Made by a program: the position numbers and the translations under genes
In this document: piece after piece, positions 3,331 through 18,799 of the stretch
Position numbering within the stretch: position 1 is the stretch's first letter
Layout: each line of letters begins with the position of its first letter
The notes under the pieces: generated by a model
What the model saw: only the letters and a program-made list of their open reading frames with translations
What the model was told of the DNA's origin: nothing
Databases searched by the model: none
Origin: an uncultured archaeon
GTDB lineage: Archaea > Asgardarchaeota > Lokiarchaeia > Sigyniarchaeales > SOKP01
Direction of reading: 5' to 3'
Assembly: GCA_964447495.1 (NCBI GenBank)
Contig: CAYUTF010000061.1
Span: forward strand, 1 to 19,983
DNA length: 19,983 bases

Positions 3331-3446
3331 TAAAATCAGTAGTATGTTGCCTTAATATGCTAATTTAAAATGGTTTTTGAAATTTGAATCTATTGGAATT
3401 TTGGACGCTTTTGTTAATAAGGAAAGGAATTACTATAAAGAATATC

Positions 3447-5900
3447 TTAGTAAATGAATTGTGAAAGTTTCTTATGTTGGATTTTACGAATGGTAAAGTA
3501 AAGGATAATAAAAACTACACTGAAAAGGATGTATATAATTATATTGAAAAGTGATAGGAGCCAGCATGTTGTAATTCCAACGATTAATAATGCCATATAT
3601 ATGTAGAATCCATTCAAATGGTCTTTATTATTATCCCAAATAAAAATTGTCGCTCCAATTATGACTCCTAAATTGTATCCAATATTTATAAACTGTTTTA
3701 GATTACTATAATCCATTATCGCTAAAATAATTGCCCCAAAAAGGCCTATAATTAAGAAATAGAAGATATTATTATTGCCTTTCGCCTCATAAGCGGTTTT
3801 TCTTGCATTTGTAAGCCCATTTTTGTAAAGTGCCCAGAACACCAATGCTGTACTAAAAATTTTGAAGTAATAATGACCGAAGAAAAGATCAATATTATCT
3901 AAAAACGATAAATCAAGATGATATCCTAGGATTTGTAAGATTTCTAACATTGAATCAGGGACAGCAAACTCAAATGCAATATTAACAGAAGGAATAAGTT
4001 CTATAGAAAAAAGAGCTTTAAATGCGGCTCGAATTGACCAAATAAGATATATCATTACGAATATATCAAATATTTTGAAAGCTTTTTGCTTTACCATTAA
4101 TGTCGAGAGTTTGAAATATTTAGATACTGATGCAATAATACATAACCCAATTAAAAAATTTATAGATATAGCAATCAGAAACAGCGCTCCACTTAGTAGA
4201 GTATTATAAACTAAAAAATCAGTATCAATTATTGAAAATGTGATTAAACCTATCAAAGCGATTATTCCTGCATATAAAAAAGGTATCAAACTTCTGAGAA
4301 TTCTTTTATTATCAATAATTTTATCATAATGAGTTCCAATTTCCTCTTCAATTTTACATTTACTAGCAATCTGCATTAGGCGATCATATCGACTACCAGA
4401 TGATTTTAATGCCATTGATTGAAACTTACTCGATCCTTTAATGTTTAATGGATTTCCTTTCAATAGAATCCTTTTTAAGCTCACTAAATCTCCAATTGAA
4501 TCAGGCAACTCTTTTAATTGATTATTCTCTAAATTTATAATTTCTAATTGTTTCAGCTCTCCAATAGAATTTGGAATTGATAGAAGTTTGTTCTCATATA
4601 AATCTAATACTTTTAAAGAATCGAGTTTTCCTATAGAATCGGGGAGCTCTTGTAATTCACAAGAACTTAAATCTAACACTTCTAGTGATATCAGATTTCC
4701 AATACAAGAAGGTAATTTATTTAAAGTTCCTTTATAGAAGATTGGTGGTGCTTCAAGATATAGTGATTTAAGATGCCTTAAATCACAGATAGAATCGGGT
4801 AATTCATTTAAGGGATTATTTTCAATATTTAAATGCTCTAAACTGTCGAGATGTCCCAATTGATCAGGTAAAGAAGTTATATAATTATTTTCTAAATGCA
4901 AACTCTTTAGATTCTTTAAATCTTTTAAATCCTCTGGAAGATTGGATATATTTGTTAGAGACAAATCCAAAAATTCGAGGTTTTTTAGTTGAAATAAAGT
5001 TTCTGGGACTTTTCCAAGTGGATTACATTTCAATGTTAACTTTTTTAAAAATTTCAAGTTTTTAATATTGGTAGGTAAGTCCTTTAAGTCGCAATTAAAT
5101 AACCCTAATCCAATTAACGTACCATCTTGAACTACTATTCCAAAGGAATCATTCTCACAACTGTATATTCTTGGAAGTCCATTTCTTTTAAGCTTCTTTA
5201 AATCATATTGTGTCTTTATGTGAGGGTTTTTGCTATTATTGAAAATAAGCTTTTCAATTTCTTGTAATGTATCTATCTCATAATTATTGAGATTATACCT
5301 ACTATATCTATTAGATGGTTGATTGAGTAGATTATCTTTTCTATCTATTAATCTTTTTATTATATCATTGAAGAGGATATCAACATTCTTTCCTGTTTTG
5401 GCCGAGTTATAATAAAATTTAAAGTTATTTTCTTTTAAATAAAAGCCAATATATTTTGACGCATCTGGTATAAGTTTAGGATGCAAATCTGCTTTATTTC
5501 CTGCGATGCTTATCGGAATCTCATGCAAATCGTCTTCAATATATTGATTAAACCACTTTTTAAAATCTCTAACGTTAATATGACTTTTTAATTCCTTGAC
5601 AATGATTACAGCATCAGCATTTTTTAATATTTTTTCTCTTAGTGGTGAAACTTGAGAACTTAAACCTCCCGTGTCCCATATAATTAAGTTTACTTTGACT
5701 CTCTCCTCGAATATTAAGGTTTTTTTAATGATTTTAAATCCTACTGTAGGATGATGAAACTCAGTAAAGGTATTTTCAAGAAATTTTTGTATTAAGGATG
5801 ATTTTCCCGATTGATAATCTCCAAGGATTATAATCTTAAATGTATAATTTCCTTCCGATAAAGCTGAAGCGTTAATTTGCTTATTAATTTGAGAATTCAA
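3447..5900 (-). CDS. Small GTPase (Rab/Roc-like) + leucine-rich repeats + C-terminal multipass membrane domain fusion
   Basis: aa ~19-186: GDYQSGKS, TVGF, WDTGG, NKAD, SAK. aa ~260-487: about 9-10 LPxxIGxLxxLxxLxLxxNxL repeats. aa ~535-805: 7-8 hydrophobic helices. TTG start is uncertain. Confidence 0.88.
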   Translation of the reverse strand: MNSQINKQINASALSEGNYTFKIIILGDYQSGKSSLIQKFLENTFTEFHHPTVGFKIIKKTLIFEERVKVNLIIWDTGGLSSQVSPLREKILKNADAVIIVKELKSHINVRDFKKWFNQYIEDDLHEIPISIAGNKADLHPKLIPDASKYIGFYLKENNFKFYYNSAKTGKNVDILFNDIIKRLIDRKDNLLNQPSNRYSRYNLNNYEIDTLQEIEKLIFNNSKNPHIKTQYDLKKLKRNGLPRIYSCENDSFGIVVQDGTLIGLGLFNCDLKDLPTNIKNLKFLKKLTLKCNPLGKVPETLFQLKNLEFLDLSLTNISNLPEDLKDLKNLKSLHLENNYITSLPDQLGHLDSLEHLNIENNPLNELPDSICDLRHLKSLYLEAPPIFYKGTLNKLPSCIGNLISLEVLDLSSCELQELPDSIGKLDSLKVLDLYENKLLSIPNSIGELKQLEIINLENNQLKELPDSIGDLVSLKRILLKGNPLNIKGSSKFQSMALKSSGSRYDRLMQIASKCKIEEEIGTHYDKIIDNKRILRSLIPFLYAGIIALIGLITFSIIDTDFLVYNTLLSGALFLIAISINFLIGLCIIASVSKYFKLSTLMVKQKAFKIFDIFVMIYLIWSIRAAFKALFSIELIPSVNIAFEFAVPDSMLEILQILGYHLDLSFLDNIDLFFGHYYFKIFSTALVFWALYKNGLTNARKTAYEAKGNNNIFYFLIIGLFGAIILAIMDYSNLKQFINIGYNLGVIIGATIFIWDNNKDHLNGFYIYMALLIVGITTCWLLSLFNIIIYILFSVVFIILYFTIRKIQHKKLSQFIY

Positions 5901-6036
5901 GAGCCTTTTTCCAATGGATAGTATATTAGAAAATCTAAATATAAGATGTATGTTATTTCATAGTGATAATAAATCAATTTTTTTTTAATTCTTGCTTTTC
6001 AAAAACAAAAAAATAGGCTGTTTTTCTCCTAATTCT

Positions 6037-7239
6037 TTACCAAATACTAATTTTATTTCTAAGAATTACAAAAAATACCACACCAAATAAAGCTAAACCT
6101 GTTAAAAAGAAAAATCCGATATCAATCCCGAAAGTTGCTATATATCCTATTACAATCGGAGAAAAAAAGTAGCCAAAACCAACTATTGTCTCAAAGTAAA
6201 CGCTATATTTTGAAGTTTTGTTAATTATATTTTTAAAAACTATCAATTTGAATGAAAACGTATAATTAATAGATAAGAACATGCCAAAAGTAAAGAATAA
6301 AAATCCAAAAATAATGATATTTTGATTAATAGCCATTAAAAAAAGGCTACAAAATACAATCATAATTGAGAAGGGCAATAATTTCTTTAATCGTGCAATA
6401 TTAAAATCCATTGATTTTGCAATAGTAATCGTTTGAGAGGAAAGTCTAAAGGCATAAAATAAGTAGTTTGTAAATAGTGAAAAATTCAAAAGATTTGATT
6501 TTAGGGGATAGACTAATCCTACTCCTCCAATTAAAAAACTATATACGCCAATCATTACAAGGGGAATATACAATGGAAAGGAGACTTCTTCATTCTTAGG
6601 AATGGCTTTTACACCTTTATCCATTGGGATTACGGGCTCTGATTCAAGATTAAAATTTGGATTTTTAATAAAAAAAGCAAAAATAACTCCAATGATTGCA
6701 AAAATTAGTGAAAACTTAAACATAATAAGATTATCATCAATAAAGAAGAGAATACAAGTTCCTAAAATAAAGCCGAAAATTCCTCCTGAATTCCATGATA
6801 GACTATAAGTTTTCATTAACTTATTTTTTTGAACAGTATTATCTTTATATTCATTCTGATCCAATATTGTAGAGATTGTGCTCGCTAAAACTGGCCAAAA
6901 AAAACCTAAGAGAATCCCATCAGAAATTAAGAGAATAAATATAATCAATGGGTATAAATTAAACTGCAGAATGATTTGAATAACCAACGCGCCTGATGAA
7001 GAGATTATAAGGGTTAATTTTAATCCCAACTTGTTATGAATATTACGAAATATTAACGGAGAAAATAGATAAGCCATTGCTGTACCAGAAGTGATAATTC
7101 CAATGATTTCGGAGCTAAGATCTATCCCTATTAAATATAATGGGATTGCTAAACCAATTGTTACACTTATTGCGATTCTGAAGAACGCGGAAAAGAGAAT
7201 TGGAAGGAGATTATAACCTTTTTTCCCCACTAAGTACAT
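6037..7239 (-). CDS. MFS-like transporter
   Basis: About 12 hydrophobic helices in two halves with a central loop; degenerate motif A (RNIHNKLGLK) and YSLSWNSGGIFGFILG. Confidence 0.82.
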   Translation of the reverse strand: MYLVGKKGYNLLPILFSAFFRIAISVTIGLAIPLYLIGIDLSSEIIGIITSGTAMAYLFSPLIFRNIHNKLGLKLTLIISSSGALVIQIILQFNLYPLIIFILLISDGILLGFFWPVLASTISTILDQNEYKDNTVQKNKLMKTYSLSWNSGGIFGFILGTCILFFIDDNLIMFKFSLIFAIIGVIFAFFIKNPNFNLESEPVIPMDKGVKAIPKNEEVSFPLYIPLVMIGVYSFLIGGVGLVYPLKSNLLNFSLFTNYLFYAFRLSSQTITIAKSMDFNIARLKKLLPFSIMIVFCSLFLMAINQNIIIFGFLFFTFGMFLSINYTFSFKLIVFKNIINKTSKYSVYFETIVGFGYFFSPIVIGYIATFGIDIGFFFLTGLALFGVVFFVILRNKISIW

Positions 7240-7316
7240 CCCACATACTATATTAAATTAAAAAATAGAATTAAGGAAAAATAATAAAGTTTATGGCAAT
7301 TTACAGAAATAGATAC

Positions 7317-7409
7317 AATCTTAAAAAATATAATTTGAAATAAAGCCTTCTTTCACATTACTCGTTCCAAAATCTATGAAATACTTATCAACATATTCAA
7401 ATTAAATTT
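7317..7409 (+). pseudogene. Highly decayed remnant of an LRR gene C-terminus
   Basis: Frame reads NLKKYNLK*SLLSHYSFQNL*NTYQHIQIKF and aligns residue-for-residue to HLHT/INLQRNPLPSDMVQNLRNTYPHIQIEY at 8955-9046. Confidence 0.55.
7366..7407 (+). repeat. Diverged direct repeat, copy 1 (partner 9003-9044)
   Basis: tccaaaatctatgaaatacttatcaacatattcaaattaaat; 36/42 identical to copy 2, ungapped. Confidence 0.85.
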
Positions 7410-7737
7410 TTTATTAATAAGGTAGGTTTCAGTACAAATTCCTATAAAGAATACCTATGGAATATTTATGGCGCATATCGTCAAGGAAATCTTGAATATC
7501 TTTTACCCCTCAGTCCGCTTACTGATCACCCTGATGAATTAATTGAATGGACCAAGACTAATTGGAATACTCTAAGAAACCATACAATCTTCATATTTAG
7601 CAAGCGTTGGGTATTGTTTAAAATACTTTAGAACTTAGAAGAGATGCAGAAAGATTGATGCTTGGTTTTCTTTTATCTATAGGCTTAGCGAGTATGCAAC
7701 TCTCACTTTTTGATGTAAGGTCAATTCCATCCGAATT

Positions 7738-7752
7738 GAAACTTTTATAAAT
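7738..7752 (+). promoter_or_regulatory. Candidate archaeal BRE-TATA promoter for the LRR gene
   Basis: gaaac-ttttataaat about 70 nt upstream of ATG 7819; weak evidence given the AT-rich background. Confidence 0.35.
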
Positions 7753-7818
7753 AAAATTATCCTTTTTTTAAATTAGAAGAACTTAAGACTCCATTTATTT
7801 AAATTAGTATTTTTCTTC

Positions 7819-8751
7819 ATGATAAGCATGCGAAAAGAACAAAATTATGTAACTCTTATGGGTAAAAAAATATTCATCCAATCTAAGGAAAATTTACCTC
7901 AATTAGCACAGTATGATTTTTTACCCATCTGGGATACTAATCTGAGGAGAATATCTGAACTTGAAGGATTAGAAAAATTACATGATCTTGAAGGCCTAAT
8001 TGTCGTTGAAATATACCTAATGGAAATCGATGGGCTTGAAAAACTCACTAATTTAAAAGAATTGCGAATAGTTGGAAGTGAATATCTTACCAAAATAAAA
8101 GGGCTTGATACGTTAACTAACTTAGAAATTCTAGATCTTGGGTGCAATTGTTATATTGACAAAATTGAAGGTTTAGATAATCTTCAAAACCTTAAAGTAC
8201 TTAATTTTGGCACAAGTTATTTTGATTGTGAGGGTGGATTTGTAATGAAAATTGAAGGCCTTGATAATTTAACTAATTTAAGATGGCTAAATTTTAATAG
8301 TAATGGCATTAGTACCATTGAAGGTCTTGAAAATCTTAAAAATCTCCGATATCTCTCTTTTATGGCAAATATGATTACAAAAATACAAGGTCTAGACTCC
8401 CTTGTGAATCTTGAATTCTTGGATTTATCGGAGAATAAAATTGAACATATTGAAGGCCTCAATTCATTGATAAATTTAAAGCATCTTAATTTAAAACATA
8501 ATAATATTTCTGAGATACAAGGTCTTGATAAGCTCCAATCATTAAGAGAACTTAACCTATTCGATAATAAAATTCAATAAATTGAAGGTATTGATCACAA
8601 TCTTAACCTACAAGAATTAGATGTTCGTCAGCGGCACAATATGTTTCCATCTTTTTCCAAGAAAAATAAACCTGAAAAAAGGTATTATTCACGAGAAGAG
8701 ATACTGCCTTATCTTAAAAATTTGAAAAAATTAGAAAAATTCAATGACTAG
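7819..8751 (+). pseudogene. SDS22-like leucine-rich repeat gene interrupted by an in-frame TAA at 8578-8580 (253-aa ORF 7819-8580 may be expressed truncated)
   Basis: About ten IEGLxxLxNLxxLxLxxNxI repeats. After the TAA the same frame continues IEGIDHNLNLQELDV...EILPYLKNLKKLEKFND to TAG 8749-8751. Confidence 0.8.
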
Positions 8752-8828
8752 CATTATCCCATTGCGGATAAGTACCCAATTTACTATTGGTAATCCCTCA
8801 TATTTACGATACTTTTTGGAAAGGGTTC

Positions 8829-9052
8829 GTGGAAATTTAATCATCCAACAACTATTTTTGTTCATTTAGCGTCCCAGAACCACTCGAATACCTTGAATTT
8901 ATTGACTTGTCGGATATTTATATTGTTAACATTAAAAACCTCGACAATATTGCTCACCTCCATACATAAATCTACAGAGAAACCCCCTCCCCAGCGACAT
9001 GGTCCAAAATCTACGAAATACCTACCCACACATTCAAATTGAATATCCCTAA
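8829..9052 (+). pseudogene. Frameshifted remnant of a second SDS22-like LRR gene (last repeats plus C-cap)
   Basis: VEI*SSNNYFCSFSVPEPLEYLEFIDLSDIYIVNIKNLDNIAHLHT, then a -1 shift at ~8965 gives INLQRNPLPSDMVQNLRNTYPHIQIEYP* (TAA 9050-9052). Confidence 0.72.
9003..9044 (+). repeat. Diverged direct repeat, copy 2 (partner 7366-7407)
   Basis: tccaaaatctacgaaatacctacccacacattcaaattgaat; 36/42 identical to copy 1. Confidence 0.85.
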
Positions 9053-9296
9053 TTTCACTCCCCAAAATTTAACTTTAAAACGTCGTATCATTTAAAAATA
9101 ATGTTCTTCTCGAACCATTCGCTCCCAAATCTCAATTTATCGCTAGTTAGTTTTCATACTTTATCGCATATTATTTAGACGGTTAAATATAAAAACAAAT
9201 GAATCTTTAAGTAAAGATATTCAACGATAAAAAATACATAGTTATTAAAATCTACACTGATTTTTAATAAAATTACAGAGATTAGAACTAAAACTT

Positions 9297-10079
9297 ATGC
9301 AGGCTGGCAATCAACTAATAAAACGGCTTCAATCGGGTTCGATTCGGGGAATAATATTTGATTTTGACGGTACGCTCCTTGATATAAGGGAACCGCTTCA
9401 GAGAGCAATAGAGGAAGTCTACCAAGCGAAAAATATTAATGCCGATATTACAAGCACAATAGAGGAGATCGGGGCATTAATGGAAACAATTCAAGGGTAT
9501 CCTCTTCCAAAAATCTTGCTTGAATCCTATGAAATGTTTAAGTATATTTCCTCACTAAAATCATTGACATTTTTTAAGAAGCTTGAGATAGCTATAAAAA
9601 TTTTTACGAAATATTTGACATATGCGAAGGAAGCTCCGTTATTTCCTAACACAGTAGAGATATTAAAAAAACTTAAAAAATCGTTTGATCTCTTTATTGT
9701 ATCCCATAATCAAACGAGAAATGTGCTCGAACATCTAGAGAAGGAAAATATCAAACCCTTTTTCAAAGGGATATTTGGAGCGGATGTATTACCTGCCTTA
9801 AAACCTGATCCTAAGGCATTGAGCCCAATTTTTGAAAGTTATAAATCGTGCAAGTTGAAAGATTTTATAATGGTTGGAGATATGCCATCGGATATCGAGG
9901 TGGGACGAGAGGCTGGTGTTTGGACAATTGCCATCGCGAGCGGTGTGAGTAGTAAGCAAACCTTAACAGAATTCAAGCCAGATATATTAGTTGAATCGTT
10001 GGATGATTTTCTTAATTTAATTGAACAAAAAAAAGTATCAAATTCAAATACTCAAAAAGGTCTTAAAATAAAATCCTAA
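9297..10079 (+). CDS. HAD-superfamily phosphatase (subfamily IA, Gph-like, C1 cap)
   Basis: Motif I FDFDGTLLD, motif II IVSHN, motif III KPDP, motif IV VGDMPSD. Confidence 0.92.
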   Translation: MQAGNQLIKRLQSGSIRGIIFDFDGTLLDIREPLQRAIEEVYQAKNINADITSTIEEIGALMETIQGYPLPKILLESYEMFKYISSLKSLTFFKKLEIAIKIFTKYLTYAKEAPLFPNTVEILKKLKKSFDLFIVSHNQTRNVLEHLEKENIKPFFKGIFGADVLPALKPDPKALSPIFESYKSCKLKDFIMVGDMPSDIEVGREAGVWTIAIASGVSSKQTLTEFKPDILVESLDDFLNLIEQKKVSNSNTQKGLKIKS

Positions 10080-10083
10080 GAGG

Positions 10084-11748
10084 ATGAATAGTATGGAACT
10101 GAATGAAATAGAAGCTGCTAAAAAAATTGATGAAGATGAGCTAACCGAAACTGAAAAGGAAAAAATGAAAGGAGAGTTAGAGCTTGGTAAGCGTCATCAA
10201 AACTGGATGTATCAACTATTAAAATACAATCCAATTGACCCTATAAATGATGTTTATCGTCAAGCTGTAAAGCGATTAAATGTAGAAGATAAAGAGGGAC
10301 AACTTCAATGGTGGGCAGCATATATTTATGTAAAATGGTTCGTGAGGACATTATGGAATTTTAAGGCGATCTATCCGAAAAAAAACATGTTTCCTGAATT
10401 TGGACCTGGCGTAGTGGTCTCTAATCACCAATCTCATATAGATCCTTTCCTTCTTGGTGCTGCATGCCATCGCCGCATTAGATTTATGAGTAAACTTGAT
10501 AATTTTAAAACTCCTTTAGTAAGGACATTATTTTCGAATTTAGGTGCTTTCAAAGTGGATCGTGAGCACCCTGAAGCTGGTTGGGAGCGCGCGCGACAAG
10601 TTATTAGAAAAGGTGATTGGGTGGGAATCTTTCCGGAAGGCACCCGTAGCAAAGATGGTGAGTTAGGAGAGTTTAAGACGGGAGCTGTAAGATTAGCAAT
10701 TGAGATGGATGTACCTATTGTCCCCATGGGGATTGTTGGTTCTCTAAATGCATTACCTAAAGGAAATTTAATGATGAAACCCACACAAATAATTGTTCGG
10801 GTTGGTGATCCTATTTATTATGACAATTATGATATTAACACAGTGACCTATGAAGAAATACATCGGTTAAATGATGAACTACGAACTATCATTTTTGAAT
10901 TAAAGGAAGGGACATACGGTAAAGTCGAGGAGGGTCTCTCTATCGGAAGTGTTGAAGATATCGAAAGAGTTCCAAAACTTACTTTCAAATCATATATGAA
11001 AGATTTAGGGAAAAGCATTTTAAGGTTAGTGGATGATACCTGGTATGCATTTCTTAAAAGTTTAGAAGTTTTCGGGCTTCGAGATACATTCCAAGAGGCG
11101 GTTCAGAATTTTTCAGGATGGTTGGTTCATAATTGGAGTGACCTCATGTTACCCTATAAAGTCATTGATTATGATAAGTATATTCCCGACTCTGGTGCTG
11201 CTATCCTTTGTACCAATCACAATTCCGAATGGGATGTTATAATGACAGCGACGAGCATGATCTATCATAAGCATCGTGTGATTTATCAAATGTCGAAACA
11301 AACATTATTTAAACCTCCGGTAGTTAATGCATGGATTCGTAATCATCACGCGTTTCCTCTAAAGCGTGGGCAAAGCGACCGAGATTCCTATAATTATGCG
11401 GGGTACCTTTTAGATAATGGTCATATCGTTATGATCTATCCTGAAGGTACTACTAATCTTGGCGAAGGGGAATTATTAGAGGGCCATACCGGAGCTATAC
11501 GTCTTGCAATCGAGAAGCAAGTTCCAATCTTACTAATTGGTATAACTGGTACAGAACATACTTACCCAAAGCACGCTAAGATGTTAAACTTTTATAAGGG
11601 TCAAATCTTTAAAGCAGGACCAGCCTTTATGGAACATCAGCAATATTGGGGCAAACCAGTGCCTGACTATGATGAACTTAAGCGATTAACCGCGAATATG
11701 ATGGCTCAACTAAAAGAATTACTCATGTATGACACTCCAGATGCGTAA
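10084..11748 (+). CDS. Tandem double-domain glycerolipid acyltransferase (two PlsC/LPLAT domains)
   Basis: Domain 1: NHQSHID (HxxxxD), FMSK, FKVDR, IFPEGTRS, FKTG. Domain 2: NHNSEWD, QMSK, FPLKR, IYPEGTT, GHTG. Starts 4 nt after the HAD stop. Confidence 0.93.
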   Translation: MNSMELNEIEAAKKIDEDELTETEKEKMKGELELGKRHQNWMYQLLKYNPIDPINDVYRQAVKRLNVEDKEGQLQWWAAYIYVKWFVRTLWNFKAIYPKKNMFPEFGPGVVVSNHQSHIDPFLLGAACHRRIRFMSKLDNFKTPLVRTLFSNLGAFKVDREHPEAGWERARQVIRKGDWVGIFPEGTRSKDGELGEFKTGAVRLAIEMDVPIVPMGIVGSLNALPKGNLMMKPTQIIVRVGDPIYYDNYDINTVTYEEIHRLNDELRTIIFELKEGTYGKVEEGLSIGSVEDIERVPKLTFKSYMKDLGKSILRLVDDTWYAFLKSLEVFGLRDTFQEAVQNFSGWLVHNWSDLMLPYKVIDYDKYIPDSGAAILCTNHNSEWDVIMTATSMIYHKHRVIYQMSKQTLFKPPVVNAWIRNHHAFPLKRGQSDRDSYNYAGYLLDNGHIVMIYPEGTTNLGEGELLEGHTGAIRLAIEKQVPILLIGITGTEHTYPKHAKMLNFYKGQIFKAGPAFMEHQQYWGKPVPDYDELKRLTANMMAQLKELLMYDTPDA

Positions 11749-11769
11749 TTGGTAAGGGGTTTCTTTACG

Positions 11770-12846
11770 ATGGAACTTAGTGAACATAGTGAGAGAACGA
11801 GATATAAAGTAGGGATACCGAGAGCTCTACACTACTATCGTTATTATCCATTTTGGAAAAAATTATTAGAAGAATTGGATGTTGAAATCATATTAAGCCC
11901 TCAAACAAATAAGAAAATCGTTGAAGAGGGAGTCACTCATGGTTTTGGTGAACTGTGTATCCCCGTAAAAATATATTACGGTCAAGTGCTAAAATTAATC
12001 GAGGAAAATCCCGATTTAGACTTTCTATTTGTACCTCGATATGTCTCAGAAGATCAAGATTCGTATTTTTGCCCGAAATTTTTATCCCTACCTGATGTAA
12101 TTAAGATTCTACCGGAAGTACCAAAGATTTTAAATTTTGAAGTAAATGTAAAAGAATTTCCTATTGCTACTTCTGCTGTAGAACTTGGTAAACAGCTCGG
12201 TAAAGGTCAAAATGCCTCTCTTGACGCTTATAAAAAAGCCCAAGCCTATTTTGATGAATACCATGAATTTTTACGCCAAGGGGGTTCTGTGAATCACGCA
12301 TTACGTTTAGTCCAGCGAAATATTCCCTTTAAACTACCAAAAAAGAAAATTCAAGGGGATATCAGATTTCTATTGCTCGGTCATGCGTATAACATATTTG
12401 ATACCTTCATTAATTTAGATTTTATTAAAAAATTACAAGATCAAGATGTGGAAGTTCTCACAATTGAAAACATCCCTGAGTTTATCTTTAAAGAACCGGT
12501 CATCGTAAATCCAAGGGGCGGAATCCTAAGAAATTACTGGCGCCATGAGGAGGAAATAATGCAAGCCATACGATTTTTCCTAACAAAAGGACGAAATGAA
12601 ATAGATGGTGTTATTTTTTTAATTAGCTTTGCATGCGGTCCTGATAGTCTTATCTCAGAATTAATTATGCGCGACATGAAAGTTGTCGGGTTGCCCTTTT
12701 TGGAGATCATAATGGACGAACATTCAGGTGAGGCGGGTATGATGACTCGGATCGAAAGCTTTGTTGAGATGGTCCGCCGAAAAAGAAAAAAATTGGGATT
12801 AGAACCGAGATGGAAAGCGAAAATTAAATTTTATCAGACAACATAA
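11770..12846 (+). CDS. DUF2229 / acyl-CoA dehydratase-reductase-like Fe-S subunit (PlsA C-terminal-type domain)
   Basis: KVGIPRALHYYRYYPFW, ELCIPVKIYYG, FCPKF, FACGPDS, DEHSGEAGMMTRIESF. ATG 11770, preceded by GGTAAGGGGT, is preferred over TTG 11749. Confidence 0.88.
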   Translation: MELSEHSERTRYKVGIPRALHYYRYYPFWKKLLEELDVEIILSPQTNKKIVEEGVTHGFGELCIPVKIYYGQVLKLIEENPDLDFLFVPRYVSEDQDSYFCPKFLSLPDVIKILPEVPKILNFEVNVKEFPIATSAVELGKQLGKGQNASLDAYKKAQAYFDEYHEFLRQGGSVNHALRLVQRNIPFKLPKKKIQGDIRFLLLGHAYNIFDTFINLDFIKKLQDQDVEVLTIENIPEFIFKEPVIVNPRGGILRNYWRHEEEIMQAIRFFLTKGRNEIDGVIFLISFACGPDSLISELIMRDMKVVGLPFLEIIMDEHSGEAGMMTRIESFVEMVRRKRKKLGLEPRWKAKIKFYQTT

Positions 12847-12982
12847 TTGTTTCTAAGATTAAACTATTCCTTCTATTTATTTATTTTCATCTTAGAAATC
12901 TGATGTAGTAGTGTATTAAAAGGCTTTAAACTTACTTCCCTACTTTTGGATATCAAATGAATTAATTACTATTATTTACTCT

Positions 12983-13004
12983 TTCTTTCTTGCCTTCTAC
13001 ATTT
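12983..13004. repeat. Imperfect 22-bp inverted repeat, left arm (partner 14456-14477)
   Basis: ttctttcttgccttctacattt; its reverse complement matches 14456-14477 at 21/22 positions. Confidence 0.5.
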
Positions 13005-13156
13005 GAATACTTAATCTCTTTTTTATTAACTAAGTTGTGCATTTTCTCGTTATGTGCTCCATAAATTCCTACACATAGTCTTAGTTTTATTAAAATTTTG
13101 GTATATTTTTAATAGAACTATCATACTTTTGAGATTCTGAACGTAATGGGTAATTT

Positions 13157-13164
13157 TTTATATA
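13157..13164 (+). promoter_or_regulatory. Candidate TATA box for the 13233-16585 transcription unit
   Basis: tttatata about 70 nt upstream of ATG 13233 in a 386-bp intergenic gap; no clear BRE. Confidence 0.3.
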
Positions 13165-13232
13165 AGATTGTGTTATTTATTCAAATACCAAGTTAAGTAA
13201 AATGTAAAACACCCACAAAAAACAAATAAATA

Positions 13233-14420
13233 ATGCTCATATCCTTTCCGAATATGGGATCCAGCTGGGTCGCATTCAAAACACTGTTCACGGCATTAGA
13301 TTTAGAAGTTGTCCTTCCCGACCCTACAAATCGAGAGGCAATCAAAATCGGAGTTAAACATAGCCCCGAATTTGTATGTTTTCCATTTAAAGCTACAATC
13401 GGGGATTTTGTGAGTTCTATTAAGAAGGGAGCCGATACTCTTGTAATGGCAGTTGACTGTGGTCCATGTCGCTTCGGATTTTATGCGAGTGTACAAGAGC
13501 GCATTTTAAGGGATATGGGATACAAAAATGTAAGGGTAATTCCTTTGGATCAGGCAGATCTTCTTGAATTTCACTGGGTCAAGACCCTCCAAGAATTGAG
13601 CGGTCGAAGGGATTTGTTTATCTATTCAAAATTTGTTAAAGCCGTAATTTATTTCTTGAAAAAATCAAAATTGCTCAATGACATTCAAACTGCGGAAGGT
13701 TTATTCCGTGCTTATGAACGTAATTTAGGCGACACAACTCGAGTAATTAATGAATTGTTGCAGAAATTAGATAATGCAAATTCGTTGTCAGAATTACGTA
13801 GCTTCAAAAAAGTGATAAAAGACGATTTCAATTCCATTGATGTTGATAAAACTAGAACTCCTTTAAGGGTTGGTCTTTCTGGTGAGATTCATATCAGTCT
13901 AGAACCGTATGTTAATTTAGATATTAGACGAAAATTGGGTGAGATGGGAGTTGAAATTCATCAAAGCCTAAGCCTTTATGATTGGGTGGTGCATAAATTT
14001 CATCTTAATTATCATCGAAAATGGCTCGAGCATTTAGCAAAACCTTATATGCCGATGGATATTGGCGGGGAATGTGTTTGGGTTCTTGGAGAATATATTG
14101 ATAAGGCAAACGCGGGGTTTGATGGATTTGTTCATTCGTATCCGTTTACCTGCATGCCCGAAGTAACCGCTCGAACAATTATAACCAATAAACTTAAGAA
14201 AATCTACGATCTTCCAATAATCTACTTTTCTTTTGATGAGCAGAGTGGTCAAGAGGGCTTTCGAACAAGATTAGAGGCGTTTTACGACTTAATGGAATCT
14301 AGACGGAATCAAGAAATTAAAAAAAACCCTGAATTTATGGCAAATGGAAAGAAGAAAATTTATCCGCATTACGGAGACGTTTTTTATAATGAAATCGCTC
14401 AATTAATTCAAGCAGAGTGA
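13233..14420 (+). CDS. 2-hydroxyacyl-CoA dehydratase D-component-like Fe-S subunit (PlsR-like)
   Basis: SFPNMG, SPEFVCFPFKATIGDF, CGPCRFGFY, LSGEI, PFTCMPE, FDEQSGQEGFRTRLEAF. Confidence 0.86.
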   Translation: MLISFPNMGSSWVAFKTLFTALDLEVVLPDPTNREAIKIGVKHSPEFVCFPFKATIGDFVSSIKKGADTLVMAVDCGPCRFGFYASVQERILRDMGYKNVRVIPLDQADLLEFHWVKTLQELSGRRDLFIYSKFVKAVIYFLKKSKLLNDIQTAEGLFRAYERNLGDTTRVINELLQKLDNANSLSELRSFKKVIKDDFNSIDVDKTRTPLRVGLSGEIHISLEPYVNLDIRRKLGEMGVEIHQSLSLYDWVVHKFHLNYHRKWLEHLAKPYMPMDIGGECVWVLGEYIDKANAGFDGFVHSYPFTCMPEVTARTIITNKLKKIYDLPIIYFSFDEQSGQEGFRTRLEAFYDLMESRRNQEIKKNPEFMANGKKKIYPHYGDVFYNEIAQLIQAE

Positions 14421-14429
14421 AGAGAAAGC

Positions 14430-15455
14430 ATGGTTGAAGTATCTGATAAAGTAAAAAATGAAGAAGGCAAGAAAGAAGCGTTCTTAGGGATTGATATAGG
14501 ATCGGTTTCCTGTAAATTTGTCTTGATGGATATCGATGGAAAAGTCCTGACAAGTGTATTTTTGCGAAATCGAGGTTCCCCTATAGATTCTGCGAAAGCA
14601 GGGATGGGAGAATTACGTGATAATATTGAAGAAAATACAGATTTGCATGATTATGTTATAAAATGTTGCGGGACTACCGGTTCAGCAAGGTATTTAACTA
14701 AGGCGGTCGTTGGTGGCGATTTAGCGAAGACGGAAATAATTGCCCATGCGGTTGCTACACAATCAATGTATCCTGATGTAAGAACCATTCTTGAAATTGG
14801 AGGGCAAGATTCGAAAATCATTATCCTTCGTGAAGGAATCATCGTAGATTTTTCGATGAATTCGGTATGCGCAGCAGGTACAGGCTCATTTCTTGATCAT
14901 CAAGCATCACGATTGGGCATTCCAATTGAGGATTTTGGAGATTACGCTATTCGAGCAAAAAACCCCGTGAGTATTGCCGGAAGATGTACGGTATTTGCGG
15001 AGTCAGATATGATTCACAAACAGAACGCGGGATTTTCGAAAGAGGATATTATTGCGGGTTTGTGTGATTCGTTGGTAAGAAATTATATGAATAATGTGGG
15101 AAAAGGAAAAGAATTGGAAGAGCCCGTGGTATTTCAAGGGGGAGTTTCGTATAATAAAGGAATTATTGAAGCATTTGAAAGACATTTGGGCTGTAAGGTT
15201 ATTGTACCGAAATATAATGTATTGATGGGAGCCCTTGGAATGGCAATCCTAGTCAGAGATTATTATCTTGAGAACGGCAGTGAAACTGTATTTCGGGGTT
15301 TAGAAGTATCTGATATTGAATTTAAGACATCTACTTTCTATTGTGGCGATTGCCCTAATAATTGTGAGATTGTACAGGTTAAAATGCCTGAACAGGATAA
15401 TAAGGTTATTGCGCGTTGGGGTTCACGTTGTGGAAAGTGGGATCAATTAACATAA
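14430..15455 (+). CDS. ATP-dependent CoA-enzyme activase (BadF/BadG/BcrA/BcrD, HgdC-like) with C-terminal Cys-rich module
   Basis: GIDIGSVSCK, TTGSAR, EIIAHA, EIGGQDSK, MNSVCAAGTGSFL, GRCTVFAESD, QGGV; tail FYCGDCPNNCEI...WGSRCGKW. Confidence 0.93.
   Translation: MVEVSDKVKNEEGKKEAFLGIDIGSVSCKFVLMDIDGKVLTSVFLRNRGSPIDSAKAGMGELRDNIEENTDLHDYVIKCCGTTGSARYLTKAVVGGDLAKTEIIAHAVATQSMYPDVRTILEIGGQDSKIIILREGIIVDFSMNSVCAAGTGSFLDHQASRLGIPIEDFGDYAIRAKNPVSIAGRCTVFAESDMIHKQNAGFSKEDIIAGLCDSLVRNYMNNVGKGKELEEPVVFQGGVSYNKGIIEAFERHLGCKVIVPKYNVLMGALGMAILVRDYYLENGSETVFRGLEVSDIEFKTSTFYCGDCPNNCEIVQVKMPEQDNKVIARWGSRCGKWDQLT
14456..14477. repeat. Imperfect 22-bp inverted repeat, right arm (partner 12983-13004)
   Basis: aaatgaagaaggcaagaaagaa, inside the 5' end of the activase gene. 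Confidence 0.5.
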
Positions 15456-15483
15456 TTTTAATATAATTAAAGGTGTATACAAA

Positions 15484-15678
15484 ATGGCAGAATTTATAAA
15501 GCAATTGAGAGAGAGGGGAGAAGACTTTTTCGATACTATCAAACATAAGATAAAGTTATCGACAATTTTTGACTTATACACTGAAAAGGTAATACCTACA
15601 TTCGTTTCTGAAAAAGATTTAAAGGAATATTATGAGAGACGGATGGAGGAAGTAAATAATTTTATTGATAAATTATAA
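15484..15678 (+). CDS. Small helical hypothetical protein (64 aa)
   Basis: Fills the operon gap (28 nt upstream, 14 nt downstream); AGGTG SD-like site before ATG. Confidence 0.8.
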   Translation: MAEFIKQLRERGEDFFDTIKHKIKLSTIFDLYTEKVIPTFVSEKDLKEYYERRMEEVNNFIDKL

Positions 15679-15692
15679 GAGAGGTTAAGAAA

Positions 15693-16379
15693 ATGGTAGA
15701 AAATACGGTAGAAAAGGAAACCAAAGGAAAAGAGAAGATGTTTAGCAAGGATTTGATGGAAGACTTACTCTATGGCACCGTAAAGGGACTTGGTGCGTTT
15801 GGTCTTACAGCTTTTGCTGATCTGAAGATAGAGGGGAAAGAGAATGTTCCTATCATGGGGAAAGCGATCCTGACTACGATAAGTGATAACGCATTAAGAG
15901 ATATGCTAATTATTAGTCAAGTGACGGGGAGAAGGATTCATTTTATGGTGCATCATAAACTTATGAAGAATCAAATGTATGGACCCGTTCTTAAATCGTT
16001 AGGGATGTTTCGGAGCACATTAGACAAAGAAGATACTGAGCCAATTGATAAAGTATTCCATTATTTAAATGAGGCCGGTGATCTTGTCGCGATGACTCCT
16101 GAATCTAAATTAGAGAAAGATATCCAAATAAAAGCGATGGCAGGAATTATTAAATTTGCCGTAGCGGGGGATGCTCCTATCATTCCGTTAGCAATTTACA
16201 CAGAAAAAACCAAGATCTTGAATTTGATCGATTCGCAAGGAATTAGAGTAAAAATCGGTACTCCTTTACCGGTGGAGAAGCGATTGAATCGTGAGAAATA
16301 TCGAGATCAAAGGTATGAACTTGCAGAGGATATTATTAATATCATTGATTCTCTAAAAATTCAGCCTATGGATGATTAA
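15693..16379 (+). CDS. PlsC-fold acyltransferase-like protein with degenerate catalytic motifs
   Basis: IEGKENVP, RRIHFMV, VAMTPE, APIIPLAI, IRVKIGTPL follow the PlsC pattern; HxxxxD is replaced by SDNALRD. GAGAGG SD upstream. Confidence 0.8.
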   Translation: MVENTVEKETKGKEKMFSKDLMEDLLYGTVKGLGAFGLTAFADLKIEGKENVPIMGKAILTTISDNALRDMLIISQVTGRRIHFMVHHKLMKNQMYGPVLKSLGMFRSTLDKEDTEPIDKVFHYLNEAGDLVAMTPESKLEKDIQIKAMAGIIKFAVAGDAPIIPLAIYTEKTKILNLIDSQGIRVKIGTPLPVEKRLNREKYRDQRYELAEDIINIIDSLKIQPMDD

Positions 16380-16393
16380 AAAAAAAGAGGTAA

Positions 16394-16585
16394 ATGTATT
16401 TGGAAAGTGAATTTGAATTAAATTCCGAGCTAGAGCAACGCAAAGAAGAGTTAATAAAAAAATTAGAAGCGGCTCATGAAGATGGAGAGCTTATTGGAGA
16501 CATTTTTTATCACTCCATGAAACAATTTTTTGACTTGGGCGTTGAACTTGCTAAAGATTTAGCATCAGGAGAAGAAGAAGACTAA
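16394..16585 (+). CDS. Small acidic hypothetical protein (63 aa)
   Basis: GAGGT SD directly before ATG; 14 nt after the previous stop; last gene of the co-directional run. Confidence 0.75.
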   Translation: MYLESEFELNSELEQRKEELIKKLEAAHEDGELIGDIFYHSMKQFFDLGVELAKDLASGEEED

Positions 16586-16702: not shown

Positions 16703-17338
16703 TTAATACAGCTTGGTTTTATTGAAGTGAATGTAAATATTCCATTCAAAAAAAATGCCTTTATATTTACCATCGGCAGTTCCAACTAGCTTAAACCCGT
16801 TATATTCATGCCATAGAACAGAAGCTTTATTTTCTAGTGGCTTTTTTACAATAAAAGCTACTATGGGAGAATCTATATCAGCTAATATTTGTTTTAATAT
16901 CGCAGTTGCTATTCCTCGGCGTTTATACTCAACCAGAATACTTATCTGATCCAAGTAGGTAAAACCACCATTCCCCTTTGTAAGTAAATGCGCTATACGT
17001 TGATTTTTGATATAAAGGTTATTTAAAGTGCTCCGTAATGTTTTTATATCCATTTGGTTCTTGTGAATACTTATAAACCCTAATATTTCCTCGTTTTTAG
17101 TCTTTGCAACATAGATATCGGTTTTTTTATCTTTAATTAGCTTTTGATAATATATCATATCTGCTTCTATCCTTAAAAAACCATTTTCTTCTAATTCTCT
17201 CCTTTTTTCATCAGAAATTTTACTAATATCTTCAATTTCAACTAAATTTGACTTTAGAGCAGTGTGGATACCTTTTGCATCAGATAGTTCTGCGATAATT
17301 ATGTGATAAGTTACTTCAGGATGATGATCATTATTCAT
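16703..17338 (-). CDS. GNAT family N-acetyltransferase
   Basis: YLDQISILVEYKRRGIATAILK acetyl-CoA motif A and NKASVLWHEYNGF motif B; ATG 17338 preferred over TTG 17407. Confidence 0.88.
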   Translation of the reverse strand: MNNDHHPEVTYHIIIAELSDAKGIHTALKSNLVEIEDISKISDEKRRELEENGFLRIEADMIYYQKLIKDKKTDIYVAKTKNEEILGFISIHKNQMDIKTLRSTLNNLYIKNQRIAHLLTKGNGGFTYLDQISILVEYKRRGIATAILKQILADIDSPIVAFIVKKPLENKASVLWHEYNGFKLVGTADGKYKGIFFEWNIYIHFNKTKLY

Positions 17339-17647
17339 TTTCAAAGCCTTACCAAGTAATTGTATTTTTAAAAAAAAGTATTTTCTTTTAGTAAAGTAAC
17401 ATACCAAGTTAAATTAAATTTAACCATTTTTGTAAACTTGATTAATTTCTTAGCAGATTCCAATTGAATAATTCATAACCTTTTATTTATTCTAAAAATA
17501 ATTATACTACTAAATAATGATGGTATGAGAAATATAGAAAATCCAGAAATGGAAATAGAAAAAGAGTCCAAAGTCAGGGTCTGTATTTTATAGGGGATCT
17601 TATTCTTTTTTAATTAAATTTTTAAATCACATTAAGATTAATTACTT

Positions 17648-18799
17648 ATGGTTGAATTCATCAAATTAAAAGGCAGTCCTAATGAGCGGGGTTACCTACA
17701 GGGAGAACAATTAAAAGAAAAAATTCATCACACATTTGATACAGTATTTCACTCAAAAATGTTTTCAGAAGTTACCTCGAAATTCATTCCACTCTCCATT
17801 ATAAAATTTGCTTTGGGAATTATTGGAAAAAAGAATACCAAAAAATCATTATCACAACTCCTTCCAAATCAGCATGAGAAGATGATTTCTCTGAGTAAAG
17901 CGGCCGGAATAAGTAAAAGATTGATTTATGGCGGACATTTTATAGAGGTCATGTCAGGAGACCCAAACTCATTATATAAAAACCCTCCAGTTCCCGCTTG
18001 CTCAATGATATTTGCATTACCCAGCGCTACTATAGATAACGCTATGATATTTGGGAGAAATTATGATTTTCCTAATGTTCTCCAACCATTTCAGGTGGTT
18101 CGTGAAGAATTGCCGGATAATGGATATAGAAATCTGAACTTTACCCAATATCCTTTGGTGGGCTGCCATATAGGGCTAAATGAAAAAGGCTTAGCAATAG
18201 GGTATAATTTTGGTCGCTCATGGAAAAAGGAACCATTAGATTTCAGATTAAAAGGTGTTCCAGCTACTTTCATCATACAAGAAGCCTTAGAAACTTGTGC
18301 AACAACTCAACAAGCTATTGATTTTATTACCCATTTTTCTGGACGTGCTAATGGGTTTCATTGTGGATTAATGGATATATCGGGAGATACTTGCATAATA
18401 GAAACTACCAGCACTCGTTTTGCTCTGCGTCGGCCTAAAGAGGGAATATTAGCGCACACGAATCATTATCAGACAGAAGATCTTAAAGATGCTAATTTAC
18501 CTGAGTATGTTCGATTTAAAATGGATGATATGGATATTAGCCCTATAGAATCACCAATTAGACGATATAAAAGAGAAATTGAGCTCCTCAACAAGTACAA
18601 AGGTCAAATTTCGATAGAAACAATTAAAGAAATTTTAAGAGATCATGAAAATAGAGAACCAGATGATTTTACCGTCTGTACTCATGGTCCTGCTGCAGGA
18701 ACTTTGGGCTCTATAATTATACTTCCCCTCAAACGCGAATTCTGGGTCACAGATAATCACCCATGTCAATCTGAATATGAAAAATTCACGTTAAAATAA
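17648..18799 (+). CDS. C45 family autoproteolytic Ntn-hydrolase/acyltransferase (acyl-CoA:6-APA acyltransferase-like)
   Basis: N-terminal LKGSPNERGYLQG, putative cleavage A|CSMIF, GRNYD, GLNEKGLAI, HTNHY, CTHG. Confidence 0.9.
   Translation: MVEFIKLKGSPNERGYLQGEQLKEKIHHTFDTVFHSKMFSEVTSKFIPLSIIKFALGIIGKKNTKKSLSQLLPNQHEKMISLSKAAGISKRLIYGGHFIEVMSGDPNSLYKNPPVPACSMIFALPSATIDNAMIFGRNYDFPNVLQPFQVVREELPDNGYRNLNFTQYPLVGCHIGLNEKGLAIGYNFGRSWKKEPLDFRLKGVPATFIIQEALETCATTQQAIDFITHFSGRANGFHCGLMDISGDTCIIETTSTRFALRRPKEGILAHTNHYQTEDLKDANLPEYVRFKMDDMDISPIESPIRRYKREIELLNKYKGQISIETIKEILRDHENREPDDFTVCTHGPAAGTLGSIIILPLKREFWVTDNHPCQSEYEKFTLK

Follow-up and report, generated by a model that had tools for sequence, protein, structure and literature searches.

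Here, we describe a cluster of eight co-directional genes, g1 to g8, on a 19,983-bp contig of an Asgard archaeon; the whole of this contig is referred to as the window. The cluster joins PlsC-family acyltransferase genes to a trio encoding a DUF2229 protein (subunit D, g3), a diverged paralogue of it (subunit D', g4) and an ATP-dependent activase (g5). As judged from sequence comparison, the trio is an orthologue of a widespread bacterial three-gene family with the order D-D'-activase, a sister group of PlsA and Ger and not a fragmented PlsA or Ger. It is borrowed from or shared with anaerobic bacteria, and it is coupled to PlsC in one Asgard class. By analogy with PlsA and Ger we propose, tentatively and a little short of calling it probable, an Asgard-specific operon that builds and modifies lipids, with a DUF2229-type ester-to-ether step following acylation by PlsC. 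The features of the locus are listed below, with protein lengths in amino acids (aa).

9297-10079, + strand: g1, HAD-IA family phosphatase, 260 aa; Pfam HAD_2, DFDGT nucleophile motif
10084-11748, + strand: g2, tandem double PlsC-family acyltransferase, 554 aa; PF01553 twice, TIGR00530
11749-12846, + strand: g3, subunit D, DUF2229 with HgdD-like C-terminus; likely true start ATG 11770 (358 aa)
12847-13232, no strand: intergenic gap of 386 nt between g3 and g4
13233-14420, + strand: g4, subunit D', diverged g3 paralogue, 395 aa; DUF2229 N-terminal part
14430-15455, + strand: g5, ATP-dependent activase of BcrAD_BadFG/HgdC type, 341 aa
15484-15678, + strand: g6, 64 aa, Cys-free, conserved; no Pfam or NCBIfam family
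15693-16379, + strand: g7, PlsC-fold protein lacking the catalytic His (pseudo-acyltransferase), 228 aa; PF01553
16394-16585, + strand: g8, acidic open reading frame (ORF) of 63 aa; no Pfam or NCBIfam family; uncertain as a real gene

The ORF listing of the window gives these eight plus-strand ORFs over 9297-16585, at the coordinates and with the tight spacing that an earlier note on this DNA had reported. The intergenic distances are, in order, 4, 0, 386, 9, 28, 14 and 14 nt; the 0 nt between g2 and g3 become 21 nt if g3 starts from ATG 11770, as it does in the 358-aa database protein P0001. Domains of g1 to g8 were assigned with Pfam and NCBIfam profiles. The Pfam matches likewise agree with the note's description of PlsC-fold domains, two in g2 and one in g7, which flank a DUF2229/HgdD-like/activase trio, g3 to g5. 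An Rfam search of the window, gap included, matched no RNA family.

We regard the contig as Asgard and as correctly assembled because of its named g3 homologues, the gene content, the distribution of g3 and a bridging contig without differences. Close homologues of g3 (77-84% identity) are labelled Promethearchaeota, Thorarchaeota, Hodarchaeota, Hermodarchaeota or Odinarchaeota archaeon in NCBI, and Promethearchaeota is an archaeal phylum in the database taxonomy. The host genome (3.81 Mb, 98.4% complete, GC content of 31.3% versus 32.8% for the window contig) encodes GGGP synthase. No archaeal small-subunit rRNA was found in the host genome, and the taxonomy rests on named homologues and gene content; the class is presumably Lokiarchaeia-like. 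In a second sequencing run, an independent contig spans g2, g3, the gap and g4 (window 10690-13887) with 0 differences. The archaeal assignment of the earlier note is thus upheld, also by a g7 cluster made up of Archaea throughout (see below), and a bacterial origin of the contig is refuted.

For the placement of the trio, we use BBD for a polypeptide that combines two BcrAD_BadFG domains with DUF2229; BBD and PlsR-like proteins of relatives served as stand-ins for the named PlsA, PlsR and Ger in all comparisons. The D domain of a PlsA-type protein is matched by g3 with a BLAST E of 6e-26 over 359 columns, and the g3 family aligns to the BBD D domain with an hhalign probability of 99.8% (E 6e-30, 300 columns). 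The best sequence match of g3 among solved dehydratases reaches E 1e-3 over about 60 C-terminal residues. A grouping of the trio with amino-acid-fermentation dehydratases, which the earlier note had named as a way for its proposal to fail, is thus not what we find. A sequence search of the PDB with g4 returned nothing at E up to 10. The families of g3 and g4 align to each other with an hhalign probability of 99.5%, and on this comparison g4 is a paralogue of g3.

An exhaustive search for g3 homologues yielded 2704 clusters (50% identity) at E <= 1e-3. Among the best 150 of the 2704 cluster representatives, all have at most 770 aa and none is of BBD length; they are mostly stand-alone proteins of 300-380 aa, together with a few shorter fragments and nine proteins of 671-770 aa that resemble D-D' fusions. 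Members with names belong to Thermoanaerobacter, Omnitrophota, Thermoleophilia and Bacillota and bear the annotation 'acyl-CoA dehydratase activase-related protein'. The g3 tree was computed with FastTree only (193 rows, SH-like support). Here, 21 Asgard rows, i.e., g3 of the window, 19 same-class orthologues and the D domain of one FAD fusion, form a single clade with five unnamed representatives (SH-like 99). This clade lies apart from Bacillota and inside the split-form family, and the branch that carries the BBD D domains has a length of 2.56. Another Asgard class has its D protein placed among bacterial-like rows.

The 90% cluster of P0126, one of the five representatives in the Asgard clade, holds an Omnitrophota-labelled protein. 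A further g3 homologue, P0044 (81% identity), carries the label Nanopelagicaceae bacterium, which we take as a mislabel or a binning error. These two proteins of the Asgard-type clade with bacterial NCBI labels may reflect gene transfer or mis-binning.

Around g3 homologues, 80 named bacterial loci (L062-L141) were examined, from Thermoanaerobacter, Pelotomaculum, Syntrophomonas, Desulfotomaculum and others. All 80 carry D-D' and 66 an activase, in the same D-D'-activase order. In 25 loci, identities to g3, g4 and g5 amount to 32-38% for D, 31-38% for D' and 50-57% for the activase. Gene order, activase tail and invariant Cys residues are common to the bacterial operon and the window trio. It differs in its surroundings: g6 is found in 0/80 loci, PlsC in 1/80, and a g7 search of the loci gave no match. 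Frequent neighbours in Bacillota are GerA-family genes (29 loci), spoIIAA/spoIIAB/sigF-like genes (23-28), dacF-like genes (25), SpoVAD (22) and a lysA-like decarboxylase (22). The Bacillota trio thus sits in a sporulation neighbourhood, which may hint at the ancestral role of the family. A full-text search for 'DUF2229' found no published function for the bacterial trio.

These relations do not support the earlier reading of the trio as a split plasmalogen synthase or Ger: BBD proteins are absent from the host genome, g4 is paralogous to g3, and the trio as a whole is orthologous to the bacterial D-D'-activase operon. Ger (T. maritima Tmari_0479, D. alkenivorans SHJ90043) and PlsA/PlsR (C. 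perfringens CPE1194/1195) have the BcrAD_BadFG activase, DUF2229 and HgdD-like C-termini in common with the trio, the Cys-rich tail of g5 recurs in BBD proteins of relatives, and an anaerobic host is a further likeness. In contrast, the trio lacks a BBD fusion. It has a single activase domain where these enzymes have two, and a pair of paralogous D subunits takes the place of D plus PlsR; the trio also forms a separate clade, with a long branch. A second group of known systems comprises HadBC-HadI, HgdAB-HgdC, BzdNOPQ, MbdONPQ and DCCP/DCCP-R. These resemble the trio in how their catalytic subunits fold (Foldseek TM 0.50-0.55), in the activase core and in the logic of a heterodimer with an ATP-dependent reductant. 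They differ by an identity of 10-16% to the trio subunits and by the absence of the Cys-rich activase tail. No CoA-transferase or fermentation genes were found near the trio in the window.

The individual subunits carry the marks of this enzyme superfamily. In g3, DUF2229 (PF09989) scores 155.5 bits (cut-off 29.4), and HGD-D stays just below its cut-off of 28.4 with 27.2 bits. In g4, DUF2229 covers the N-terminal part only (43.2 bits, same cut-off of 29.4), and HGD-D is sub-threshold at 20.7 bits. Exactly three Cys occur in g3, C70, C108 and C296; they are invariant in 21/21 Asgard rows and in 60/60 rows when bacteria are included. For g4, C49, C79 and C307 are invariant in 18/18 rows and C76 is present in 17 of them; three Cys stay invariant, and one nearly so, when bacterial homologues are added. 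AlphaFold2 models of g3 and g4 have pLDDT values (predicted local distance difference test) of 93.2 and 89.9. The best PDB folds found by Foldseek for the g3 model are 2-hydroxyisocaproyl-CoA dehydratase, DCCP and BzdNO (TM 0.50-0.55, E 6e-10), and those for the g4 model are DCCP, HadB/C and MbdON/BzdNO (TM about 0.5, E 4e-8), in both cases at 10-16% identity to the dehydratase/reductase structures.

The activase g5 scores 158.7 bits for BcrAD_BadFG and 193.7 bits for TIGR00241 (cut-off 125.4). Solved activators match its core at E 1e-35 to 1e-23, with HadI, HgdC and MbdQ at E 1e-35 to 1e-34. Six Cys (C147, C186, C305, C308, C312 and C334) are invariant in 15/15 rows, of which we take C147 and C186 to be the cluster-bridging ligands, by analogy with HgdC. 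The other four lie in a C-terminal extension of about 58 residues with the pattern CX2CX3C...C. Five solved activators (HgdC/HadI/Mbd/DCCP-R, 243-276 aa) stop short of such an extension; the motif is found again in the linker of BBD proteins and in 63/63 bacterial trio activases. With the activase Cys pair, the HgdA/B-type fold of the models and the conserved Cys residues, g3, g4 and g5 have the features of the BCR/HAD/DCCP radical enzyme superfamily. No Cys expected of an activase is lacking in g5.

On the acyltransferase side, PF01553 covers two stretches of g2 (191.8 bits), and TIGR00530 is exceeded with 157.5 bits (cut-off 102.95). The PlsC structure of Thermotoga maritima, 5kym, matches g2 at E 1.3e-16. 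HX4D and PEGT are kept in both domains, so that by motif both PlsC domains of g2 are catalytically intact. In these motifs and in clearing the TIGR00530 cut-off, g2 resembles bacterial PlsC (LPAAT; T. maritima 5kym). It differs in its tandem two-domain form, in having no predicted membrane anchor, and in being accompanied by a dedicated His-less third protein of PlsC fold, which is fused in other Asgard families. No transmembrane helix is predicted in g2, where 19-residue hydropathy peaks at 1.37, and neither g2 nor g7 has a transmembrane or clearly amphipathic anchor in its sequence.

This third protein is g7, with 33.7 bits for PF01553 (cut-off 23) and 40.6 for TIGR00530, below 102.95. It reads ISDNALRD where NHxSxxD is expected and PES where PEGT is expected. 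In g7 and four aligned orthologues, Ile-Ser replaces Asn-His and PES, PEA, PEE or PQA replaces PEGT. With His and PEGT lost in 5/5 rows, the label 'pseudo-PlsC' given to g7 earlier proves apt: from its motifs g7 is a pseudo-enzyme, which keeps the PlsC fold. Its cluster in the Protein Atlas has 98 members, 100% Archaea, and Promethearchaeota is the commonest phylum among the 27 of known phylum. In families f6 and f7 the g7-equivalent His-less domain forms domain three of a triple PlsC protein of 876 aa, a fusion which argues that g7 works with g2.

The phosphatase g1 scores 86.5 bits for Pfam HAD_2 and has the HAD core with the DFDGT (DxDxT) motif. In NCBIfam, the phosphoglycolate phosphatase and PpaX models are sub-threshold, the best reaching 89.5 versus an equivalog cut-off of 225. 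On this basis g1 is assignable to the HAD-IA superfamily, and a role as phosphatidate phosphatase is putative. Orthologues of g1 adjoin PlsC in 10/13 same-family loci, and HAD-PlsC fusions exist in bacteria. The pairing occurs twice in the host genome, in the window and on contig C67, where the only other PlsC gene of the host (251 aa, locus L005 53-3344) has a HAD_2 gene directly upstream. This second pair is flanked by a ubiquitin-conjugating E2-like gene on one side and a ThiF/E1-like gene on the other. Profiles for PlsY and for PP-binding/acyl carrier protein (ACP) found no match in the 98.4%-complete host genome, which makes acyl-CoA the probable donor for g2. PF01210 and PF13685, for the supply of glycerol-1-phosphate or glycerol-3-phosphate, gave weak, partial matches to generic dehydrogenases in the host genome.

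The g3 orthologue is found in 34/41 genomes of the genus and 121/134 of the family. We fetched 20 loci around g3 orthologues (L0xx labels), families f1, f3, f6 and f7 among them. In 18/20 of these loci, three closed genomes included, the distance from the g3 orthologue to a PlsC gene upstream is at most 3 kb; in L040, g1 and g2 are inverted and 7.5 kb away from the g3 orthologue, and L057, which comes from another class, lacks PlsC. All four families, f1, f3 (three closed genomes), f6 and f7, preserve the order D-D'-activase. The form of PlsC varies by family: a tandem double protein plus separate g7 in f1, two single-domain genes in f3, and the 876-aa triple protein in f6 and f7. The linkage holds across 41%-100% g3 identity and through PlsC fission and fusion. 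With the g3 orthologue in 121/134 family genomes and the order kept across families, we consider the operon arrangement to be more than chance. In other Asgard classes, no PlsC was found near D-D' in the two informative loci (L057, L142); L143 and L144 are too short. The linkage of acyltransferase and activase genes, on whose conservation the earlier note made its proposal depend, therefore stands for one Asgard class and does not extend to the informative loci of other classes.

In family f6, L056 (G126) also has the triple PlsC, a HAD fusion, D, D' and activase. The f7 locus adds further genes, as follows (neighbours were scanned in L055 only).

L055 (G128, f7), 2465-13125: in order, triple PlsC of 876 aa, LarA-like protein, 488-aa HAD protein, D, D', activase, radical SAM protein

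The LarA-like protein of L055 has Lar_N/LarA_C domains, the C-terminal half of the 488-aa HAD protein matches no assigned domain, and the radical SAM protein after the activase carries an HMPTM-type zinc ribbon. The host genome itself has one LarA homologue, which is unlinked and located on a 2.8-kb contig.

The small ORFs differ in how well they are conserved. With a hidden Markov model of 12 sequences, g6 was detected immediately behind the activase in f1 and f3. The f6 match is weak (E 2.5e-5), and the bacterial loci gave none (0/80). No family was found for g6 in Pfam or NCBIfam and no usable match in the Protein Atlas. As it is class-specific and missing from the 80 bacterial loci, g6 was gained together with the PlsC linkage. 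Orthologues of g8 occur only in the same-genus loci L038 and L039 (77% identity); it is the weakest part of the eight-gene set and uncertain as a gene.

The 386-nt gap between g3 and g4 has a composite make-up. Its last 130-160 nt (window ~13076-13232) share 82-87% identity with the 180-nt gaps of the same-genus loci L038 and L039 and have no other copy in the genome, and its first ~230 nt are unique to the host genome. In relatives, cassettes of BBD and PlsR-like genes are inserted at exactly this position.

L041, 9519-13904: insertion between g3 and g4 with a BBD gene (985 aa) and a PlsR-like gene
L042, 3781-13335: insertion between g3 and g4 with a BBD gene (977 aa), a PlsR-like gene, an 837-aa FAD_binding_4-DUF2229-HgdD fusion, a second activase and a second D'
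L043, 4841-8838: insertion between g3 and g4 with a BBD gene (865 aa) and a PlsR-like gene

In these three loci, whose ORFs were examined, the PlsR-like genes encode 462-474 aa and directly follow BBD. A class-wide search gave 39 near-full-length BBD matches, of which 13 are on the same contig and strand as g3 and at most 5.3 kb downstream of it (hand count). Assemblies often break downstream of g3, as the relatives' contig stops at most 1.4 kb downstream of it in 25/51 minus-strand rows (hand count). The closed f3 genomes carry, alongside the trio, fused BBD+PlsR-like ORFs of 1420-1470 aa elsewhere, with no PlsC nearby.

This analysis establishes which genes are present, their catalytic motifs and fold, the invariant Cys residues, how the families are related and that the linkage is conserved. 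A heterodimer, an acyl donor, a substrate, an ester-to-ether chemistry and a phosphatase role are inferred in the following way. A soluble or peripheral g2 would acylate a backbone of glycerol-phosphate type, probably from acyl-CoA. It would be assisted by the catalytically dead g7 and by the HAD phosphatase g1, which would remove the phosphate. An ATP-driven g5 homodimer would deliver a low-potential electron to a g3/g4 heterodimer, accompanied by g6 and with one [4Fe-4S]-type site per subunit. On the carbonyl of an ester or thioester, the heterodimer could then generate a ketyl-type radical, with the acyl ester made by g2 as its substrate. If PlsA/PlsR and Ger are a guide, an alk-1-enyl (vinyl) or alkyl ether would result. 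A lipid substrate is favoured mainly by the BBD+PlsR cassettes in the same locus and by the PlsC-fold genes that flank the trio.

The scheme could be extended to the whole class, closed-genome members included, which would make non-isoprenoid ether or plasmalogen-like glycerolipids. The trio would then carry out a step beyond canonical Ger/PlsA, e.g., with the sn-2 ester or an earlier intermediate (acyl-glycerol phosphate, for instance) as its target, and the gap would be the hotspot of a 'lipid island' in which trio, BBD+PlsR-like and FAD_binding_4-DUF2229 modules are swapped. In this far-reaching form we consider the proposal doubtful.

Several observations weigh against the proposed lipid operon. 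The main reason for caution lies in the bacterial orthologues, which are sporulation-linked and free of PlsC in all but 1/80 loci; in Bacillota they stand among spoIIA/sigF, dacF, spoVA, GerA-family and lysA genes, which implies that the general function of the trio family need not concern lipids. No transmembrane helix was predicted in any of the eight proteins. Across the whole host genome, PF09989 matches g3 and g4 only, and no BBD protein was found. The g4 family aligns weakly to PlsR-like proteins (hhalign 53.6%, E 1.3e-4, 92 columns, with a PlsR-like profile of three sequences). The co-occurrence of the trio with a separate fused BBD+PlsR protein in closed f3 genomes suggests that the two are non-redundant and possibly catalyse different reactions. 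The LarA-like racemase homologue in f6/f7 and the radical SAM protein in L055 point to a chemistry to which we can assign no place. Finally, lipid analysis of the cultured Lokiarchaeon is reported to have revealed isoprenoid lipids only, as cited in PMC13400652 and PMC9385802.

Among the alternatives, a tailoring of acyl chains fits part of these observations. D/D'/activase would act on acyl-CoA thioesters, in the manner of 2-hydroxyacyl-CoA dehydratases and benzoyl-CoA reductases, and PlsC would then transfer the unusual acyl group so made. That the best solved folds (HadBC, BzdNO, MbdON) belong to CoA-thioester enzymes is in agreement with this, as are the solubility predicted for all proteins, the 2-hydroxyacid racemase homologue of LarA type in the f6/f7 clusters and the lack of an ACP match, from which acyl-CoA is the likely currency. 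The likeness to CoA-ester enzymes is, however, marginal in sequence (E 1e-3 over ~60 residues for g3, none for g4), whereas the similarity to the DUF2229 branch is strong, and those DUF2229 enzymes that have been characterised all work on glycerolipid esters. We rate such tailoring as unlikely.

It is improbable that the cluster serves no membrane-lipid pathway at all and instead builds or degrades a small acylated, phosphorylated metabolite, e.g., an acylated hydroxyacid or polyol. Here g2 clears the cut-off of the 1-acylglycerol-3-phosphate acyltransferase model TIGR00530 and matches T. maritima PlsC, and cassettes of PlsA/Ger type are inserted into the same operon in relatives. Such a metabolite would nevertheless suit the missing transmembrane or clearly amphipathic anchors of g2 and g7, the resemblance of g1 to phosphoglycolate and pyrophosphate phosphatases (sub-threshold only), the LarA-like and radical SAM genes in a relative's cluster, and the transporters of the major facilitator superfamily (MFS) that recur beside the cluster in six same-family loci.

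We judge it equally improbable that the trio has retained the function that it has in anaerobic Bacillota and does no more than lie in one transcription unit or genomic island with PlsC, with no common chemistry. The bacterial orthologues, with PlsC in 1/80 loci and in sporulation neighbourhoods, would be explained, and, given the 386-nt gap and its conserved stretch upstream of g4, g4-g8 may be transcribed separately. A mere shared neighbourhood is at odds with a linkage that persists over 41%-100% g3 identity and through PlsC fusion and fission, with the position of g7 on the far side, so that PlsC-fold genes flank the trio, and with the class-specific g6 gained together with the linkage. 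That the trio is simply a PlsA/PlsR or Ger orthologue split into three genes is very improbable: the Pfam domain set (B, D, H) is the same and the activase extension is common to BBD proteins, but the Asgard g3 clade (SH-like 99) lies inside the split-form family with BBD D domains on the 2.56 branch, the best 150 of 2704 representatives are all at most 770 aa, g4 pairs with g3 and not with PlsR-like proteins, and relatives possess genuine BBD and fused forms in addition to the trio.

The proposed lipid operon touches on published work at several points. Expression of Ger of T. maritima and D. alkenivorans in anaerobic E. coli led to 1-alkyl glycerol monoethers, and the BBD architecture was described as conserved in all alkyl-ether producers (PMC13159169). 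C. perfringens plsA-plsR gives plasmalogens (PMC12838417, PMC9702350), and plsA/plsR are also treated in PMC8788747. Ger homologues in Lokiarchaeota, a cultured strain included, and in Heimdallarchaeota have already been published together with their bearing on eukaryogenesis, from a survey with thresholds of e <= 1e-50 and >= 30% coverage (PMC13159169). PlsC and PlsY in Asgard genomes have been reported with their function called open (PMC6737245, PMC9385802, PMC13400652), and a 2022 review states that the function of Lokiarchaea PlsC homologues is still to be established (PMC9385802).

Thus, Ger homologues and PlsC in Asgard were already known. Literature searches of the texts, supplements outside their scope, found no description of the cassette hotspot, of the trio as a distinct family or of its linkage to PlsC in an operon. 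In sum, the earlier interpretation holds in its domain of life, linkage and enzyme branch, fails in taking the trio for a split PlsA/Ger, and was in part already published. With Ger at about 1400 aa, a 358-aa protein of g3 type would probably escape the survey thresholds. A large family (2704 clusters at 50% identity, E <= 1e-3) is thus flagged which Ger screens at these published thresholds would probably overlook.

The origin of bacterial-type membranes in an archaeal host is an open question of eukaryogenesis. With the trio, the Asgard PlsC genes gain a conserved enzymatic partner. It comes from the sole branch of enzymes known to convert acyl esters into ethers in the absence of oxygen. 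Closed genomes of this order also carry the operon, which makes the idea directly testable. If the far-reaching form with a 'lipid island' is true, the lineage nearest to eukaryotes would have a tunable mixed membrane.

Several other genes flank the operon in the window. Upstream lie a Ras-family small GTPase (709-1260, - strand), an 817-aa fusion of a Ras/Roc GTPase with leucine-rich repeats (3447-5900, - strand) and a stand-alone leucine-rich repeat protein (7819-8580, + strand), all of them eukaryote-like signalling genes typical of Asgard. A flavodoxin is also among the flanking genes. MFS transporters at 1936-3330 and 6037-7239 (both - strand) have generic NCBIfam matches. Homologues of the former adjoin the HAD end of the cluster in the six same-family loci L038, L039, L040, L041, L044 and L047. 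A role of this neighbour in lysolipid salvage of LplT/Aas type is no more than a lead, as the LplT-Aas model reaches only 28.7 bits versus a cut-off of 1349. Downstream of the operon, we find a GNAT-like protein (16703-17407, - strand) and an autoproteolytic acyltransferase/hydrolase of the C45/AAT family (17648-18799, + strand; NF040521 146.5 bits). Among the fetched loci, these two genes are kept beside the cluster in L039 only.

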